Source: Chiloscyllium plagiosum (Eukaryota). From it: 48,467 bases of DNA. Made by a program: the position numbers and the translations under genes. Positions 4,371 to 46,914 of the stretch are shown here, piece by piece (the stretch's first letter is position 1; every line of letters begins with the position of its first letter). The stretch covers positions 19,627,438 to 19,675,904 of the forward strand of contig NC_057749.1 of the NCBI RefSeq assembly GCF_004010195.1. Reading direction: 5' to 3'. Below the pieces are notes generated by a model, which was not told the DNA's origin, did not search any database, and saw only the letters and a program-made list of their open reading frames with translations.

Positions 4371-4561
4371 TTAAACAATATTAGTGGCAGTGGTCCTCAT
4401 CTATCTCTTCACATTACATAATAGCTTACTTAACCTGTTACATATAAAGATTGCTCTTGGAAGCTTTCCTTACCGATTGAAGTACTCTGTTTTCATGGAT
4501 CTGTGCAAATAACCTTGTGGTTATTGTAAGTCTCTTATCTGACACAGTTCCACTCTCTAGT

Positions 4562-4768
4562 TAAAAATCACACAACACCAGGTTATAGTCCAACAGGTTT
4601 AATTGGAAGCACACTAGATTTCGGAGCGACGCTCCTTCATCAGGTGATTGTGCAGCGTCGCTCCGAAAGCAAGTGTGCTTCCAATTAAACCTGTTGGACT
4701 ATAACCTGGTGTTGTGTGATTTTTAACTTTGTACACCCCAGTCCAACACCGGCATCTCCAAATCATGA
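4562..4768. mobile_element. Non-coding fold-back PLE mini-insert with 12-bp TSD
   Basis: Two inverted pLTR ends, the right one extended by a ~40-nt tail. TSD CCACTCTCTAGT at 4550-4561 and 4769-4780. Minus-strand hammerhead motif at 4611-4650. Confidence 0.9.
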
Positions 4769-5244
4769 CCACTCTCTAGTGGTTGTCACATGGCACTGCA
4801 CAACTTACACCGACATGAGAGGATTCTGTGGGGTGATTTGAGGCTGAGCAAAGGATATTCTCCTTCATGCGCCAACTGATAATTCTCCCTCAAGCAATAA
4901 TCCAGTCATTTCTGTTTCTGAGATTATGCATTTATTTGCCCTATCCTGTTTCCTACCGGAATACAGTGATGACCCTTTGAAAACCGTGAGAATGTTGATA
5001 TGCACAATTTGCTTGGTTCCTGAGCTTTTGTGATATGAATCACTGCAATTCAAGCTAAACCGTATCCTGAGACGATGAAAGTGTGCCATAATATTGGGTT
5101 AAATTACCAGTAAATTTAAAGCTTACATTGTGAGTTACCAAGCTGTAAACCAGGGCTGATTGAGCTGCCAATAGTATCGCTAGCCTTCAACATGCCTTCA
5201 ATTATTTTGTTGCAAAGCTGAAACCAAAATGTCTACTGTTTAAT

Positions 5245-15735: not shown

Positions 15736-16574
15736 TATAGGCCAGTGTGCACAGGGATGTTGGGGAAATGGGACTTAACAGTGAGTTAAGTCAAAAGCAG
15801 GAGGAGTTTTGTTGATCTCAAGCTTTTGAATGCAGAGAAGCAGAAAGGATTGAGTTGGTGTATTCAAGCTGAGAGGTAATAATGGCATAAGTGAATGAGT
15901 CGGCAAGAATGAAAGAAACTATGAAATGGATGTGAAAATAGGTCATCTTCCCAGAATTTGGTTGGAGTACTAGAATCAACCCGAACACTCATAAAGATGT
16001 TACTGAATAGTCTGTCATCACAGTAACCACAAATTAAATTAATAATCATATAATCAATTTCTCAAATTTTGTTAGATGTTGGAATGAATTTGCATGAGCT
16101 TTTGTGTTCAGTTTTTTATAATGTAGCTTTACATTAAAATATAATCAGATTGATATTATCCCATATGGAAAGTCTTTTCAGTTCTGTAATTATGTGAAAT
16201 TATTCAATTTCTTCCTGATGTGTCACACTATTGAATGGAACTCTCATTTATAAACCATCCCCATTCTGAAAGAAGATTCTCCAAGGGTATCTCTAATGGA
16301 GTTAGACTTTGAACACCTCCCAATCAGCCAAGGTTGGTATGTAAACTGGAGCGTGTTACACAAAATGCTGCTTGGATGTGCTCGAGGCAGACTGAAGAGA
16401 AGCAAACACTGTTCAATTCACTCTGCTGAATCCTACCTTAAGAAAAATAACATTTTGTTATTTTTTGTTATTTTGTTAGTGTTTACCCAAAACCTAGAAA
16501 TATATAATGCAAAATTAAGCTAATAAGCCCATTCTAGCTGTGCTAAGGTTCATTTTTATAAGGGTCACTTCCCC

Positions 16575-17365
16575 CCCAATTCCTGTTCTCTTTAACATTC
16601 TACCCAGTCTAATTCTACTCTTCACTGTCAGTTCCATTTCCCCAATATCCCTTTAATATTCCATCCGGTCTAAATCTAACTCTGCCATTCACTCACTCTA
16701 CCTAATAATATCCCAACCAATCTATCCAGACTCCTGTTCATTCTCAGTATCCTTAAATATTCCCCAGTCTAATCACACTCTCCGTTACTCCCTGCACACT
16801 TTAATATCCCACCTTCCCCATCCTGAAGAAGGGCTTATGCCTGAAACGTCGATTCTCCTGCTCCTCAGATGCTGCCTGGACTGCTGTGTTTTTCCAGCAC
16901 CACATTTTTCAACACCTTCCCCATCATGCCTTACACCCTTTACTATCCCACCCAATCTGATTCCACACTCACCCTCACATCCCCAATCCTTTAATATCCC
17001 ACCAAAACTAATTCTCACAGCCACTCTACTCCCTATCTACCTCCCCTCCCTGTACACTTTGATATCTCACCGTCTAAAACCACTCTCTCCCTTCACTTTC
17101 CACACCCTTTAATATTTCAAGCAGTCTAATCCTACTCTCATGCTCACTCCCTGTACCCGTAATATCCTACACTCCCTTCACTTCCTAGACTCTTAGCTTT
17201 CCCACTTAGTCCAATTCTACTCTGCCGACACCATTTAATATTCTACTTAGTCTAATCCCCTCTGCCTCTTACTAGCTGCACTTTTCATCCCGGCCAGCCT
17301 ATCACCACTTCTGCTCATTTCCTCTGCCCTTTAGTACACAGCCTATCTAATCCTATTCTGTCCCT
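16575..17365. repeat. Degenerate pyrimidine-rich minisatellite (~45-50 bp unit)
   Basis: Recurrent CCAGTCTAAT(C/T)CTACTCTC...CTCCCTG.AC.C.TTAATAT.CC blocks. Confidence 0.7.
16823..16912 (+). mobile_element. 90-bp hammerhead-bearing PLE-derived insert with 13-bp TSD
   Basis: Begins CTGAAGA-A-GGGC-TTAT-GCCT-GAAAC-GTC-GAT. TSD CACCTTCCCCATC at 16810-16822 and 16913-16925. Confidence 0.85.
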
Positions 17366-20959: not shown

Positions 20960-21165
20960 GTTCCATCCTCCTCTCTGACCTATCATCTTCAGCCTCACCT
21001 TCATCTGCCAATCGCATTCCCAGCTACCTTCCCATTTATCTCAGCCCCCCTTGGGCCAGAAAAACCTCATTCTTGATGAAGGGCTTATGCTCGAAACATC
21101 GATTCTCCTGCTCCTCAGATGCTGCCTGACCGGCTGTACTTTTCCAGCACCGCATTCTTTGACCC
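20960..21165 (+). mobile_element. PLE terminal repeat with a degenerate hammerhead motif
   Basis: TTGATGAAGGGCTTATGCTCGAAACATCGAT at 21073-21103, followed by the same 3' end as 16850-16912. Confidence 0.75.
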
Positions 21166-26033: not shown

Positions 26034-26242
26034 CAGGAGAAAGTGAGGACTGCAGATGCTGGAGATCAGAGCTGAAAATGTGTTGCTGGAAAAGCGCAGC
26101 AGGTCAGGCAGCATGAAGAAGGGCTTATGCCCAAAACGTCGATATCATTCCTGAAGAAGGGCTTATGCCCGAAACGTCGATTCTCCTGTTCCTTGGATGC
26201 TGCCTGACCTGCTGCGCTTTTCCAGCAACACATTTTTAGCTC
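26034..26242. mobile_element. 209-bp fold-back PLE mini-insert with tandem hammerhead motifs and 14-bp TSD
   Basis: 34-nt tail at 26034-26067. 47-bp inverted arms at 26068-26114 / 26197-26243. TSD TGGGCTAAACCTTT at 26020-26033 / 26243-26256. Confidence 0.92.
26147..26182 (+). ncRNA. Minimal type I hammerhead ribozyme motif (intact core)
   Basis: ATTC-CTGAAGA(26151-26157)-A-GGGC-TTAT-GCCC-GAAAC(26171-26175)-GTC-GATT, with an ACGT palindrome and a GUC cleavage triplet. Confidence 0.78.
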
Positions 26243-27345
26243 TGGGCTAAACCTTTACCCAGCTACCTTTTTTGCTTTTTGCTATTGACTTTTCATGACC
26301 CCTTTTAGCACTTCTAATTCCTTAAGTTCTTTCCTACTTTGTTATGTACTTCAAGGGCTTCATCAGTTCCCAACCTCCTAGACTTTCCTTTTTCTTTCTG
26401 ACTAAGGTCATAACATCCCCAGTCATGCAAGGTTCATATAACTTGCCATACCTATTCTTTACACCACAAGAACGTGCCACTCCTGAATTCTTATCAATTG
26501 CCCTTTGAAATACTCTCAGATTTGTAGATTTATCCTCAAACCACGTCCAATCAAATTTCTCCAGTTCCTGCCTAATATTGTTGTAGTTCGCCTTTCCCCC
26601 AGGTTAACACCGAGGACTGCTGTTATCCCTATCCATGAGTATCTTAAAACTTACAGTATTATAGTCACTACTCCTGAAGTGCTACCCCACTGAAACTTCA
26701 CTCACCTAGGTGGGCTCATTTCCCAAAATCAGGTCCAGCATAACCCCTTCCCTGAATGGATTGTTTTCATACTGTGTTGAGAATCCCTCCTGAATGGTCC
26801 TGAGAAATTCTGTCCCATTCAAGCCCCTAGGACATAGCGAGTCCCAGTCAATACACTCCTTGGTTCATTGGCCTATCTGATGCCGTGAGCTGCCTGGGAC
26901 CTGAAAATCTGGAATCCCTCCTTTGCTTAAACCTCTTCACCACTATCTCCCTTTTTAATATCTGTCTTAAAGTCCACCTCAGTGGCCAAACTTTGGATCA
27001 TCTGATCTAATATTTATGGGGCTTGGTGTCCCATAATGTTCCCACAGGTTCATAATGTTCCTGTGGGGCCCCTTGGGATGGTTTGTTCGGTTAAAGAAGC
27101 TATACAAACATAACCTGTTGTTTCATGTTTTGGAACCGTCATGTGGAAGGATGTGCAATGTTGGTGGGGTGGAGTTGATGGGAAGTGAGGAGCAGGTCAG
27201 GGCTGCTGCTGAGCTTGAAATGCAGCAGCTCACAGCCTCACATTGACTGTTAAACAGGAGTTCTCTGGTCAAGCTGAAGACAGTCAGCAAGTGCACAAAA
27301 TGCCTCTGACTAGACAATGCTTAATTCTGTCTGACTGGCAGCTCC

Positions 27346-33655: not shown

Positions 33656-35435
33656 AATTATAAAAACATTTTTGCACGTTGTTCCCAAATTACTTTATAA
33701 CCAGTTACAATGTACAAATTAATGGGTAATAACTTAATTACTTAATAACCAAACTAGGTTATTCAAACCAGCTTAGAAACTAGTGTGGGCATATCTCCTT
33801 GGTGTGAGATTTTGTTACTGTTATTGCTCCTGTGAAACTCCTTGGGATTTTGTTTCTGTTCATGATGCTATATAAATGAAAGTTGTTATTGCTGTTATTG
33901 TTTTGGAACAGGCAGAAACAGGAGCGCAATGTGGCAGGGTGTGCGCCAGGGCAGGAGGGAATAGTCAGAACTGTCAGGGTTTTCTGCTGAGATTGGAATG
34001 TAGTTGCTTGGTGTGCCTAGTTGACCACTAATCCAGAACTCTGCTGCTTGGGATGAAGGTAAGTGAGTGAGGGTTCTACATTACATAATTTGTCTGACTA
34101 GCAGCTCTACCTGATGCGGAAGAGACTCAATTGACCTTCCTTCTCTGACAGATCTGGCTTATAATTAAGCAGTAGAGGGAAAAGGAACTTTCATTTATGT
34201 AGTGCCTCTTATAATCTCAAGATATCCTAACACTCTGCAGCCAAGTAATTACTTGTTTGAGGTATCTTCACTGTTGTCACACAGGGAATATGTTGCCAAT
34301 TTATGCACAACTAGCTCCCATAAATGGCAATATGATGATGACCAGATAATGTCTGACGGTGTTGTTGAAGGATGGATAATTGTCAGGGTATCAGGGATAC
34401 CTTCCCTTTTCTTGTTAAAATTAGTTCTATGACATAGAAACATAAAAATAGGAGCAGGACTGGGTTTTTCGGCCTTTGAGCCTTTCTGCCATTCAGCATG
34501 ATCATTGCTGGTCCTTTATTTCAACACCATACACTCTTTCTTGACAGTTTTAGATCCAGCTGAAAAGATAGATTGAACCTCCAAAACAGCGAAATTCCCT
34601 CAGTGTTGGACAAACTTGATTACATGCTGAAGACTGGGACATGAATCCAAAACCACCTGGACACAGAAATAAGCATGTTAACCTTTGAGTCACACCTAAC
34701 TATCAGCCATAGCCAACTCACAGACAGCCAAGCCTTAGGCATTTGGTGAAATCGTTAGTGCAATGTATCATCCTTTTGTCATTGATCCAAGACTGTGTTA
34801 CATATGGTAATAGCTCCAGCCTGAGTAACGGTTTCACTCTGGCTTTACTTTTTACAGTCAGCTATTAATTGAAGCCTGCTGGGCATCATGGCAGTTTATA
34901 AAAACTGCATCTCCAGTAGTCTAGTCACACTGTATGGATTTGAGTGTTGTTGACTGGATGTTACCAAGAATTCATAAACTGTCCTAGGGAGCTGGGAGGA
35001 AATAACAGTACAGTCATAGAGCAAGATTTGCATTTATGCAGCAGCAGGAGAGGGCCATTCATCCCATCAAGCCTGTTTCAACATTCTGTTTGATCACATC
35101 TGTTCTGTACCTCCCTTTAAATTCTCAAATATGTTACAATTTTGTCACAGAGGAAAATAGTTTATACACAGCAAGCACCCATAGGCATCCATGAAATAAA
35201 CGAACAGAGAATTTGCTTAACGTTGTTTGAACGATAAATATTGACCAAAATACCAGGAAGAATTCCTCATCTGTTAATTATGTGAACTTGTTTGCCTTAC
35301 ATGTTTTCAACTAATTAATAACTGACTGAGGAAATATGTGGGTCCTGAACTAAAGGACAGCATCACTGACAGTGCTGCATTCACACTGGAGTGTCAATCT
35401 GTCCTCGAGTCTCTGCAGGGGGCTCAAATCCATCA

Positions 35436-35650
35436 TCGTCAAAAATTGTGATGCTGGAAAAGCACAGCAGGTCAGGCGGTATCTGAGGAGCAGGGGAAAT
35501 CGACATTTTGAGTGTAAGTCCTTAATCAGGCTTATGGCCAAAAGTGTTGATTATTCTGCTCTGTGGATGCTGCCTGATCTACTGTCCTTTTCCAGCCCTA
35601 CACTATTCAACTCTAATGTCCAGCATCTGCAGTCCTCACTTTCTCCTCCA
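35436..35650. mobile_element. Older fold-back PLE mini-insert with 14-bp TSD
   Basis: Inverted arms plus a CCAGCATCTGCAGTCCTCACTTTCTCCT tail. TSD GCTC(A/G)AATCCATCA at 35422-35435 / 35651-35664. Confidence 0.8.
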
Positions 35651-37896: not shown

Positions 37897-38024
37897 GAGA
37901 AAGTGAGGACTGCAGATGCTGGAGATCAGAGTTGAAAAATGTGGTGCTGAAAAAACCCAGCAGGCCAGGCAGCATCCGAGGAGCAGAAGAGTCGACATTT
38001 TGGGCATAAGCCCTTCTTCAGGAA
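37897..38024 (-). mobile_element. 128-bp hammerhead-bearing PLE-derived insert with 8-bp TSD
   Basis: Minus strand starts TTCCTGAAGAAGGGCTTATGCCCAAAATGTCGAC and ends in the tail. TSD TTATTGAG at 37889-37896 / 38025-38032. Confidence 0.82.
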
Positions 38025-38824
38025 TTATTGAGCCAGTACATGCTCCATGTTTCCTGTCACAAGGCCCTGTTAGTATCCAGTAAAGTCTGTGTTTATCATT
38101 TGTTGTGTAAAGATCCTTCCTTCAGCTCACTCCACAGAAAGATCAAGCAATCAGTGCTTTGCTTACCTCAGCATAATTCAAGAGAAACATTTGAACAAAA
38201 GCTGTACATGATGTTTGTTTCTAAAAGGTTAGCCTTGAAAAGTAGTTATATTTATCAGGTGTTTATCCTGCTTAGGCTGAGAGACAGAGTTGAAGTGTGT
38301 GTGTGTGTGTAGACAGACAGAACATCCCTGGTTAGGAACATACAAGGAGGCTTTTCAGCCCTTCTGGCTGTCTGTTATCATTCTGTCTAATTTGCACATT
38401 GACAAAATTTCCTACATTATGCATCTATTACGACCTTGCCAGCAGTGGTAGAGAATTTCCGATTTCTATTCAGATTTTTGTGAAAGGTGTCTCCTGATTT
38501 CTGTCCTTCTGTTAGCAGAAATTAAACTGGATGAGAGGGCCTGGTTAATTCTTTGTGGTCATAGGTACAACTCCCATCACATAAGCTGGAACAAATATGA
38601 AATAAAACTAATTTTGGTAATGGTGACTGTAAAACTACTGGCAATGCTTTATATATCATTTAGTTCACTCCTCTTTTAGGAATAGAAAGCTGCTGCCCTT
38701 ACCACATCTAGACTTACAATAAGGTGATTGTCCTCTGAAATTACTTAGTAACCCACTAATTTGAGGCTATTTAGATGTATGCAACAAATGTTGGCCTTGC
38801 CCACCCATAGAAATAAAATTAAGA

Positions 38825-40910
38825 AAAAAAACAAATTGCTGGAAAAACTCAGCAGGTCTGGCAGCATCTATGAAAAGAAATCAGAGTTAATGTTTCAGGT
38901 TCAGTGATCCTCCTTCAGAATTGAAGTTATTTAGGACAAGGTTGATATTTATGCAGAAGATGTAATGCAGGAGAGTAAACGATGGGTTGAGATTGAGCCC
39001 AAGGAGAGAGAAACACAGTTGGACAAAGGAGTGGTTAAAAATCTGTCTGGGGGAATGAATAGCTGCTAATGGGTACTATTAATAGCTGACAATATGTCTG
39101 GTAGTAACCCATGTGATGAGAAGGCCTGGTGTATAGGGGTTGGGGTAAGGCCCTCAAAACCTAAAATTGTTGAACTCAATATTAAGTTTAGATCAGAGTG
39201 GTGCTGGAAAAGCAAAGCAGGTCAGGCAGCATTCAAGGAGCAACAAAATCAATGTTTTGGGCAAAAGCCCTTCATCAGGAATAGAGGCAGGAAGCCTCCA
39301 GGGTGGAGAGATAAANNNNNNNNNNNNNNNNNNNNNNNNNNNNNNNNNNNNNNNNNNNNNNNNNNNNNNNNNNNNNNNNNNNNNNNNNNNNNNNNNNNGG
39401 GTGGGGATGGAGGTGATAGGTCAGAGGGGAGGGTGGAGCGGATAGGTGGAAAGGAAGATTGGCCAGTGGGACAAGTCATGAGGATGGTGCTGAGCTGGAA
39501 GGTTGGAACTGGGGTAAGGTGGGGGGAAGGGAAATGAGGAAACTGGTGAAGTCCACATTGATGCCATGGGGTTGACGTGTTCAGAGGTGGAAGATGAAGC
39601 GAATGTGGCTGTGGTAGCGAGTCTGTTTCAGTACATGGTTGAAGAGCTTCAGGACAGAGGAGATGATCTGGGGGTTGCAGAGAGAGAGAGAGAGACTCAC
39701 AGATTCTTGTGGAGAGAGGAGGAGAACTTCTTCATGGTAGGCATCCTTGCAAGAACTCAATATTAAGCCCAGAAGGCTAGAGTGCCCAAACGGAAAATAT
39801 GGTGCTGTTCTTATAGCTTGCACTGAGCTTTACTAGAGCACTGCAGAAGGCCTGAAGTGGAGATGTTGGTGAACACAATGGTGTGTTGAAGTGGCAGGCA
39901 ACTAGAAACTCAGGGTCTTTTTTGCAGATAGAACCATAGGTGTTCTGCAAAGCAGTCACCCAGTCTATGCTTAGTTTCCCCAATGTAGAGATCACATTGT
40001 GAGCAATGAGTATAGAAGACTAGACTGAGTGAAGTGCAAGTAAAGCATTGCTTCACCTGGAAGGTGTGTTTAGAGACTTGGATAGTGAGGAGGGAGGAAA
40101 TAAACAGGCAGGTGTTACACCTTCTGCAAAAGCAGGAGAAAGTGTGGGAACATGGAGGAATGGACCAGAGTGTCCTGGAGGGAATGGTCCCTGTGGAAGG
40201 CTGACATGCGAGGGGACGGGTGGTGTTTGGTGGTGGCATCCTGTTGGAGGTTGTGGAAATATCAGCTTGAGGACATGTGGGACCCTATTGTTGTTGTGGG
40301 AGGGAAGAGAGGGTTTGAGGGCTGAAGTGCAGGAGAGAGGTTCAACCTGGCTGAGGGTCCTGTCAACCACAGTGCTGGGGAGTCTTCAGTTGAGGAAGAA
40401 GATGGAGATATTGGAGATCCCTTATTGAAATTGGTATCATCAGAACAAATGCGAGGAACTGGGAGAATGGAATAGTGTCTTTACAGGAAGCAGGATGTGA
40501 GGATGTACAGTCAAGGTATCTGTGGGAGTTGTTGTATTTGTAGTGATATTGGTGGCCAGCCTATTCCCAGAAATGGAAACAGTTATGAGGAAAGGGAAAG
40601 GAGGACTCAGGATGGATCAGGTGAATGTGAGAGCGGGGTGGAAATTGGAAGCAAACTAGACAAAACTTCTCCAATTCAGGAGGAGACACACCAATGATGT
40701 CATTGATATGTTGGAGAAAGAATTGTAGGTGAGGGCTGGAGTAGGACTGGAAGAGGGGATATTCCACGTACCCAACAAAGAGACTAGCATAACTCATGGC
40801 CATCTCTCCAACTTGAAGGAAGTGAGAGGAGTTAAAAGAGACGCTGTTGAGGGTGAGAATGAGCTTGGCCAGGCGGAAGTGAGTGGTGGTGGATGAGGAT
40901 GGTTCAGGCA
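38825..40910 (-). mobile_element. Decayed PLE (RT, GIY-YIG and pLTR) interrupted by a nested PLE
   Basis: SYASLFVGYVE (RT) and FTCTSLSLVFYTHCSQCDLYIGETKHRLGDCFAEHL (GIY-YIG). Hammerhead-like CTGAAGGAGGATCACTGAACCTGAAACATT on the minus strand near 38890-38920. Confidence 0.88.
39187..39752 (-). mobile_element. Internally deleted PLE nested in a PLE, 15-bp TSD
   Basis: TSD GAACTCAATATTAAG at 39172-39186 / 39753-39767. LKLFNHVLKQTRYHSHIRF is joined to QPHGINVDFTSF, followed by a pLTR with CTGATGAAGGGCTTTTGCCCAAAAC. Confidence 0.82.
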
Positions 40911-43905: not shown

Positions 43906-44013
43906 GCAAGAGTGCGTGCTGGAAAAGCACAGCATCCGAGGAATAGGAGGTCAGGCAGCATCCGAGGAATAGGAGAGTCGACATTGAGCAAAAGGCCTTC
44001 ATCAGGGATGAGG
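43906..44013 (-). mobile_element. 108-bp hammerhead-bearing PLE-derived insert with 12-bp TSD
   Basis: TSD GAAAGCAAAGGT at 43894-43905 / 44014-44025. Minus-strand CCTGATGAAGGCCTTTTGCTC near the 5' end. Internal duplication of CAGCATCCGAGGAATAGGAG. Confidence 0.78.
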
Positions 44014-45732: not shown

Positions 45733-45931
45733 AGAGTTGATAAAGTGTGGCACTGGAAAAAGCACAGCAGGTCAGGCAGCATCTGAGGAGGAGGAGAACC
45801 AATGTTTAATCAGTCCTGCCTGAAACTTTGATTCTTCTCAACCTCGGATGCTGTCTGACCTGCTGTGCTTTTTCCAGCGCCACATCTTATTGACTTTGAC
45901 TCTCCAGCATCTTCAGTCCTCATTATCTCCT
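45733..45931. mobile_element. Fold-back PLE mini-insert (older)
   Basis: Inverted arms CTGGAAAAAGCACAGCAGGTCAGGCAGCATC / GATGCTGTCTGACCTGCTGTGCTTTTTCCAG plus a tail. TSD unclear. Confidence 0.78.
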
Positions 45932-46914
45932 GGTTAAATTAATTAAGGTTTATAAAATACACAGCGTGAGATCTTGCTAGGACTCACGATGAAAAAGTTC
46001 AATGTAACTGACACTTAGCCACAAGCCTGTAAGATTCAGCCTTTAGTGACAGAGAATGGTGAGGACTGACTGGGGAAATTTAGGTTTTTCAACTTAGGCT
46101 ACAAACAGCTGACAAACTCTCTTGGGAAAGAGAGAAAAAATAATTTGTGGAAAAGGATTTGCAATCCAATACACTCACCCCAATTATACTGTAACTGTAA
46201 TCCAAGAGAGCACAGGTATGAACTAGCAAATTTGCACCCAATCAGGCTCAATAGTATTATAAATCAGTGCCAGAATGTAGGTTCAAAGCCGTTCCAGAGG
46301 CTTACAATCACACCTCACAGAATTGTGCAAATTCTGTTTTTGACATGATAACTTCAGTCAGTCGTTGGCTGTCTCTCGATCTGGGGATGGTGTCTATGCA
46401 TTATCATGTGACTAAACAGGCTGATCTTGACTGCTCATATTTGTGCATGTGGAGCATTCAATTGTTTACAAGGCACTTTGCAATGCTCTGAGGTAATGAA
46501 AGGTGCTACAGAAGTGCATATTCTTCCCTTCCTTCATGGTGTTGCAATTCCTGAGCCACCTCTTTGGATTCAGACTGAGGCCTGTTGTCAGTCCGTTGTG
46601 CCTGCTGTTTGGAGAAGCTATCCCACTGTCATTCCCCTGTTTTTACATCATAGCTCTCTTTGTGGTTCCTTTTGAAATATTTATCCAGTAGGCTCTTGAA
46701 GTCATTATTGAATCTAATTCCAGTGACATTTCAATAGAACATTATCAAACAACTCTGTTTCCCAAAGCTTCCTGTTGGCTGTTTTACTAATCTCCTCAAA
46801 TCTAAGCTGCCTAATTGCCTCTCCTTTCATTACAAAACACTTGCCCCTAATTACTCTATCATAATTTCCACTGCCCCTCTGCTCTGCCTCACAAGTTTAT
46901 ATGCTCAATTTCCA

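Follow-up and report, generated by a model that had tools for sequence, protein, structure and literature searches.

5' ends of Penelope-like element copies in Chiloscyllium plagiosum peak beside a minimal hammerhead motif

A 48,467-nt stretch of the Chiloscyllium plagiosum genome (contig NC_057749.1, positions 19,627,438 to 19,675,904; hereafter the window) carries a 90-bp insert that begins exactly at a hammerhead ribozyme motif, and copies of the same Penelope-like element (PLE) sampled across the genome show a sharp peak of 5' ends at that very place. The insert (16823-16912) begins CTGAAGA-A-GGGCTTATGCCT-GAAA-CGTC, ends in ...CACATTTTTCAA, and lies between two exact 13-bp copies of CACCTTCCCCATC (Table 1), the only exact copies of this 13-mer in the window. 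Five more sites match it with two mismatches each, and seven matches were reached in none of 100 shuffles. In the host region (16570-17230), C/T-rich units of 40-50 nt (families D17 and D18) form a degenerate array that goes unscored by Tandem Repeats Finder, which called no array around the insert. The right 13-mer is preceded by the insert rather than by a unit of the local repeat, and we therefore regard the pair as a true target-site duplication (TSD), as the initial annotation of this DNA had done.

The motif at 16823 consists of the CTGAAGA box, an unpaired A, a helix II of GGGC-TTAT-GCCT, GAAA and C-G-TC, with the core boxes CUGANGA...GAAA...UH all present within 16823-16850. The predicted cut falls between 16850 and 16851, that is, 28 nt inside the insert, and the 10.1-11.1 pair of this copy is G.U (11.1 = U). 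Among 75 motif instances in the window and in the fetched loci, helix II, which comes in three designs within the family, has at least 4 bp in 57, and all 57 have an extra unpaired base after A9; in 63 of the 75 there is pairing between positions 15.2 and 16.2, as a palindromic ACGU at 16823, and a helix III loop is lacking. Rfam covariance models gave no match, either at the gathering threshold over the whole window or at E<=10 over 16700-17000, an outcome to be expected because the motif has no helix III; "hammerhead core" is therefore a label given here by motif features and not by a covariance model. No Rfam family of HDV-like (hepatitis delta virus-like) or other 5'-cutting ribozymes matched, in the window at the gathering threshold or around the insert at E<=10.

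Helix I is where the insert departs from its longer relatives. In long copies AUUC faces GAUU, giving three pairs around a U.U where a helix I of 4-5 bp is typical of minimal PLE hammerheads, and the insert itself has only the AUC of its flank. The initial annotation had suggested that this ATC of the target site pairs with the GAT after the GTC triplet and thereby supplies helix I. Such pairing can form; the supply of a helix finds no support, since it concerns 3 bp in one copy and a sequence that resembles the element's ATTC. The target reads CCCCATC where the element has CCTCATTC, and long copies have CATTC at that point, and the flanking ATC may thus be microhomology with the element's own ATTC at the 5' junction, which would explain it at least as well.

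What is the insert a part of? A search of the 3.56-Gb assembly with 16823-16910, the first 88 of the insert's 90 bases and a query that favours ribozyme-containing copies, returned 45 genomic places at 86-100% identity, the insert itself counted (254 first-look candidates). Many copies share conserved sequence 5' of the box (...CCTTTTATCTCAGCC...CCTCATTC, abutting CTGAAGA), and two long copies align over about 1.2 kb, with homology reaching more than 1 kb 5' of the hammerhead. An open reading frame (ORF) reading ...CGLLYIGETGRLLAERF... ends about 160 nt upstream of the box in the hammerhead-sense direction; proteins homologous to it measure 800-900 aa and carry PF00078 (reverse transcriptase), PF01541 (GIY-YIG) and PF26215. 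A Pfam search with a 201-aa piece of this endonuclease ORF gave no match, and the ORF as a genomic query yielded 147,216 first-look candidates. The GIY-YIG-type ORF and the more than 1 kb of upstream homology in long copies point to a PLE as the source element. Judged by its sequence, the insert is the 3'-terminal module of this abundant element, comprising a minimal hammerhead ribozyme and an AC-rich region where reverse transcriptase (RT) would start, and lacking a 37-nt tail found in other copies. The copy at 16823 is most likely inert.

Two other views of the locus were dropped. An opposite-strand element with CTGAAGA as its 3' terminus was given up, as the ORF sits upstream in the hammerhead-sense direction, and a 1391-aa open frame is not the full-length element, its length being swollen by a run of N and its 5' side being an unrelated LINE-type endonuclease ORF. 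On the reverse strand of locus L093, at about 690-980 and beside a masked stretch, is an ORF with ...WDIIAIIETWL..., unrelated to the PLE, which we take to resemble a LINE AP-endonuclease domain.

The 5' ends of the family were surveyed with two queries that begin at +29 (the C of CTGAAGA being +1), just past the predicted cut, and that carry no bias towards any upstream 5' end: 16851-16910 for subfamily 1 and 26179-26241 for subfamily 2. Thirty loci were taken per search with the insert itself excluded, giving 59 copies, which as best-scoring matches are young copies. Ends were placed by extension against 12 long copies, and all upstream flanks were also read by eye; the uncertainty is 1-4 nt where a TSD overlaps the element, and both arms of one dimer are counted separately.

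The 5' ends form a sharp peak and not a smooth truncation series. In 32 of the 59 copies the end lies at -12..+12, compared with two at -60..-13, three at +13..+28 and one (L043) at +29, the predicted cut; 19 copies extend at least 60 nt upstream, and two have a masked upstream flank. The 25 nt of the peak thus hold 32 ends and the flanking 64 nt five, from whose density about two would be expected (Poisson P = 1e-27, binomial P = 2e-13). The commonest starts are -3 (ATTC, six copies), -2 (TTC, five), +2 (four) and +1 (three). The initial annotation had offered a preferred 5' end at the hammerhead as one of two readings and had proposed a plot of genomic 5' ends against which to judge it; that plot bears the reading out, and the two further inserts that it had placed near a core, at 37897 and 43906, are both real. 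It had missed that about half of the 32 peak ends are junctions of head-to-head inverted dimers, a known form of PLE insertion, the remainder being solo inserts.

Public sequence data show a boundary at the same place. On the long copy L091, whose box starts at 1593, read and contig depth, a measure that mixes subfamilies and is not copy number, falls about 5-fold or more from bins 1570-1595 to bins 1596-1621. Four listed single contigs of run X3 at L091:1596-1934 connect position 1596 (-3), in one case 1600 (-7), with four different upstream places; these joins skip 190-337 nt and are deletion-like variants bounded at most 4 nt from the hot spot of 5' ends. Among L011/L049, L073 and the window at about 39321-39360, masked N stretches break off exactly 4-5 nt 5' of CTGAAGA in two loci, at the position of the peak; in other loci they break off 37-125 nt 5' of it.

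The short copies do not stand apart from the long ones. The comparison took in 63 short copies and 20 long ones at positions +13..+90, nine rows that end outside both classes being left out; with 78 nt comparable, resolution is low. None of 32 columns separates the classes (best p = 0.018), both subfamily-diagnostic columns split alike in short and long copies, and the ratio of short to long copies is similar in both subfamilies. A FastTree tree has 14 switches between the short and long labels, where 17.0 +/- 1.6 arise in shuffles, 20 of 300 of which have 14 or fewer. With the same subfamilies, no diagnostic column and labels mixed on the tree, the short copies would therefore be no lineage of their own and would arise repeatedly from the same sources as the long copies. 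With the 63-nt query for subfamily 2, all 40 listed matches (723 candidates) are 100% identical, a uniformity that suggests a very recent burst.

The 3' ends fall at two discrete places, ...TTTTTCAA(CTCT) and 37 nt beyond (...CTCTGGTCTCCAGCATCTGCAGTCCTCACTTTCTCC), and the insert at 16823 is of the tail-less form. No partial tandem arrangement of the pLTR type was seen: after the tail, the flanks all differ in every tail-bearing copy inspected. The window has three head-to-head dimers joined near the box and the fetched loci (L002-L089) have 20, and in 23 of these 23 adjacent dimers exactly one arm is tailed (that at 26034 read by eye), for which the chance is at most 1e-7 if the arms were independent; the junctions scatter over -11..+24. 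An optional tail of 30-40 bp, present at one end only, has been reported for PLEs (PMC8557442, in part; sources so marked were accessible only as portions of their text, to which statements citing them are limited). In the element PAc (Poseidon of Anolis carolinensis), reverse transcription starts at two adjacent internal sites about 110-150 nt downstream of the hammerhead, in an AC-rich stem-loop that lies about 110-120 nt downstream of it, the tail is the stretch between the two sites, and cutting and extension by the protein involve both DNA strands (PMC11167929). The one-tail dimers fit both reports. One tail in each of 23 dimers goes beyond the published "often at one end only" in strictness, and hints that each insertion makes a single use of either RT start site.

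Snapping back of the helix II hairpin was rejected as the sole source of the dimers, because most junctions keep a CTGAAGA box on at least one arm. Minimum-free-energy folds over +48..+125, of long copies and mini-copies, pair part of the tail with GCTGCCTG...CTGCTG, which precedes the AC-rich stretch on its 5' side, and in these predicted structures the tail-less RT start site would fall within the enclosed loop. In one dimer, a 38-nt partial direct duplication (26113-26181) puts two hammerhead cores 38 nt apart; these tandem cores are the sole arrangement in the window that might fold as a dimeric ribozyme in cis.

Why would a retroelement end at the edge of a ribozyme that cuts elsewhere? 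Tentatively, and with slightly less than even confidence, we propose that the mini-inserts are run-off cDNAs, begun at an internal RT start and copied as far as the 5' terminus of the RNA, which would lie some 4 nt upstream of the ribozyme. The PLE transcript would begin at the A of TCATTCC, and a module for starting RT would lie near the 5' end of the RNA as well as at its 3' end. Starting at the 5'-proximal module, RT would run off after about 90 or 127 nt and yield mini-inserts with one fixed 5' end; where both target strands are extended, two run-off cDNAs would be joined at their shared end as a head-to-head dimer; starting at the 3' module, RT would give long copies with variable truncation. 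The insert at 16823 would then be a dead-on-arrival by-product of target-primed reverse transcription by the PLE, and the ribozyme cut would have no role in setting its 5' end.

Several observations fit such an RNA end. TCATTCC lies at the 5' edge of the box in long copies (for example L068 and L091), its A is the commonest start, and it agrees with the initiator consensus YYANWYY. Untemplated G's stand between TSD and start in L063 (GG to GGGG) and L009:2239 (GG), and we take these, together with the initiator fit and the contig joins at -3 and -7, as consistent with an RNA end. In vitro, the length of PAc products follows the template's 5' terminus, also for templates that begin upstream of the hammerhead, and PAc hammerhead mutants leave product and insertion unchanged, with no RNA-seq reads ending at the cut (PMC11167929).

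Other observations weigh against the run-off proposal. No RNA 5' end was seen, the poly(A) single-cell run X22 showing no pile-ups of starts or ends and a second raw RNA run, X23, giving no reads on the stretch, and 93% of X22 reads on the module continue into unlike sequence, as from copies embedded in other transcripts. The starts are not confined to a single base but cover about -9..+10, and among the solo copies whose TSD is good, about 16 in number, only two have the extra G's. The Penelope element of Drosophila virilis has its mapped start site about 120 nt upstream of its hammerhead, with an intron between (PMC2377424; PMC4209133, in part), and a start at -4 is therefore no general rule for PLEs. 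The in vitro evidence, moreover, comes from the lizard element PAc and not from the shark's family. Apart from these points, X22 reads at L091:1440-2200 lie on both strands, mini-copies being widely embedded in other transcripts. An origin of the end at a splice acceptor, after the example of the D. virilis intron, was rejected: TSDs abut the starts, and the commonest start does not follow AG.

A more specific form of the run-off proposal, which we regard as doubtful, would place the RNA start at the first base of helix I and let the core promoter overlap the ribozyme, with TCATTCC as initiator and a sequence resembling a downstream promoter element, AAACGTCG, formed from the boxes GAAA and CGUC (GAAA-CGUC); every transcript would then open with a complete mini-template of ~130 nt, in which the ribozyme is combined with the RT-start module. 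If true, this would account for the thousands of solitary minimal hammerheads in animal genomes, and the conserved "ribozyme" boxes would gain a second job at the level of DNA.

The end might instead be made during copying, with RT, on longer PLE RNA and from the 3' module, mostly halting or switching to the other cDNA just past the hammerhead because of its fold or a bound protein. We consider this possible, though rather improbable. Helix I has its 5' strand where the peak lies, the dimer junctions scatter over the box as microhomology template switches would make them, and the PAc hammerhead is described as "protein-assisted", so that a protein sits there (PMC11167929). However, RT arrives from the 3' side, and the fold should block it before the ribozyme, where only the three ends at +13..+28 lie; PAc products lengthen in vitro when templates start upstream of the hammerhead (PMC11167929); and the structures predicted for three long copies have no stable hairpin next to -4.

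That the short copies are a self-propagating, SINE-like mini-retroelement seems unlikely to us. Copies of about 94 or 131 nt would carry an internal promoter, its initiator being at the first base and its downstream element within the hammerhead, and an RT-recognition module and be mobilised in trans by the PLE protein, much as the initial annotation had envisaged in its other reading, that of tiny non-autonomous retroelements. They do start at the initiator-like TCATTCC, and AAACGTCG stands 26-33 nt downstream of its A, close to the usual distance of the promoter element RGACGTGY from a start site. The sequence resembles the RGACGTGY of Drosophila LINE and Penelope promoters, a likeness that chance could produce (PMC2377424). 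The family is also very abundant and young, as the identical listed matches of subfamily 2 attest, and non-LTR retrozymes are regarded as PLE-derived non-autonomous elements (bioRxiv 10.64898/2026.07.22.740005, in part). The comparison above nevertheless speaks for a shared origin: within its 78 nt there is no diagnostic column and no clade of short copies, a check that the initial annotation had itself suggested, and both subfamilies, including their long, ORF-linked copies, give the two forms alike.

Self-cleavage by the ribozyme is a very improbable source of the 5' end, as the initial annotation had already argued. The motif has all the core boxes, and L043 (a minus-strand copy at about 1459-1560) has as its exact start GATTCTCC, immediately following GUC; yet 28 nt of the inserts precede the cut, L043 is the sole such case among the 59, and the PAc mutants cited above insert as before. 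Ordinary smooth 5' truncation, with three copies in the window agreeing by chance, can be dismissed as barely credible: PLEs are known for heavy 5' truncation (PMC8557442, in part), and ends at -26, -32 and -80 do occur, but not at a density that approaches that of the peak.

The window holds further copies of the family, listed in Table 1. A second hammerhead family, unrelated in sequence, lies at 144-235 and 4560-4769 (CTGATGA-A-GGAGC-GTC-GCTCC-GAAA-GCTA). Its copy at 4560-4769 is likewise an inverted dimer, with TSD CCACTCTCTAG, a 40-nt tail on one arm and the junction at -12/+15, which suggests that the pattern may be general; at 169-476 a 154-bp unit stands twice, the two units being 100% identical and beginning inside helix II.

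Table 1. Coordinates of the insert, its parts and related copies in the window
Feature	Coordinates	Strand	Basis or details
Left TSD copy, CACCTTCCCCATC	16810..16822	.	exact match to 16913-16925
Mini-insert of 90 bp, tail-less 3'-terminal PLE module	16823..16912	+	first 88 bases 90-97% identical to 44 other genomic places; long copies run upstream into the GIY-YIG ORF
Minimal hammerhead motif	16823..16850	+	sequence; family feature counts; no Rfam match
Stretch 3' of the predicted cut, ending in AC-rich CCAGCACCACATTTTTCAA, the putative RT start site	16851..16912	+	many copies end ...TTCAA(CTCT)
Right TSD copy	16913..16925	.	exact match to 16810-16822
Older long-type copy	21018..21161	+	homology goes on upstream of the hammerhead
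Head-to-head inverted dimer	26034..26243	.	TSD GGGCTAAACCTTT; left arm antisense with tail, right arm sense, tail-less
Two hammerhead cores in the 26034..26243 dimer	26113-26143, 26151-26181	.	38-nt partial duplication
Head-to-head inverted dimer	35435..35650	.	TSD GCTCRAATCCATCA; left arm tail-less, right arm tailed; junction in helix II; inverted pairs I21 and I24 (left arm)
Solo mini-insert with 37-nt tail	37897..38025	-	TSD TTATTGAG; sense start (A)TTCCTGAAGA, 2-3 nt upstream of the box
Older long-type copy	39198..39320	-	masked (N) further upstream
Older solo mini-insert with internal duplication	43906..44013	-	TSD GAAAGCAAAGGT; sense start CCTCATCCCTGATGA, 8 nt upstream of CTGATGA
Older head-to-head inverted dimer	~45736..45932	.	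left arm tail-less, right arm tailed; inverted pair I16

A fixed 5' end at the ribozyme edge would mean that the retrotransposed unit is not defined by the ribozyme cut, and it predicts a template RNA with a defined 5' terminus that can be mapped directly. Most dispersed single or paired hammerhead motifs would be products of run-off, and neither independent elements nor truncations at random, and in genome annotation the units of about 90 and 127 nt and the palindromic dimers would belong with their parent PLE and not among separate repeat families. A full-text literature search, which did not cover most subscription journals, found no description of a preferred PLE 5' end at the ribozyme, and this regularity appears to be undescribed; published accounts exist of the element itself and of its ribozyme, tail, inverted partners and internal RT start. 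The role of the minimal hammerheads of PLEs was called "still a mystery" in a 2020 review (PMC7761336, in part), and the insertion cycle of PLEs is only partly worked out (PMC11167929).

Set beside known systems, the family lies close to the canonical EN+ PLEs (Penelope, Poseidon and Neptune), which share the upstream GIY-YIG ORF, the minimal hammerhead near the 3' end, an optional tail of 30-40 bp at one end, TSDs that vary in length and a partner copy that is inverted and 5'-truncated (PMC8557442, in part). For these the accessible text gives a "high degree of 5' truncation" with no preferred end, whereas over half of the copies sampled here stop at one place, resulting in the short units and palindromic dimers. 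PAc (Frangieh et al. 2024, PMC11167929) is alike in its AC-rich RT start about 100 nt 3' of the hammerhead, in the two starts that bracket the tail and in the extension of both strands, and the short products made from its pLTR-ORF junction RNA have the same make-up as the mini-inserts. It differs in host and family, and in that the experimenter chose the 5' end; a natural one at the hammerhead goes unmentioned.

The minimal hammerheads described in PLEs by Cervera and de la Pena (2014; PMC4209133, in part) are marked by CUGANGA, the unpaired base after A9, G10.1-C11.1 in helix II, GAAA, a palindromic 15.2-16.2 and the lack of a helix III loop, marks that recur here; a motif of this kind acts as a dimer. 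Most were said there to be single elements, probably truncated PLEs, whose starts are not mapped in the accessible text; the copy at 16823 differs in its G.U at 10.1-11.1 and in having no 5' strand of helix I of its own. Animal non-LTR retrozymes (PMC7761336, in part; Li et al. 2026 preprint, in part) are likewise small, non-coding, hammerhead-bearing, PLE-related and also common as monomers. Retrozymes, however, form tandem arrays that give rise to circular RNA through cuts at two hammerheads (PMC7761336, in part), whereas the copies here lie dispersed as singles or inverted pairs that have TSDs, and their unit ends elsewhere than at the ribozyme cut; no head-to-tail array with hammerhead cuts as unit borders was seen, the sole direct repeat being the 38-nt partial duplication at 26113-26181. 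In the HDV-like ribozymes of R2, RTE and L1Tc the motif also coincides with the 5' boundary of a retroelement RNA, but these ribozymes cut at their own 5' edge and thereby create the end (PMC7761336, in part), whereas the hammerhead cuts 3' of its core.

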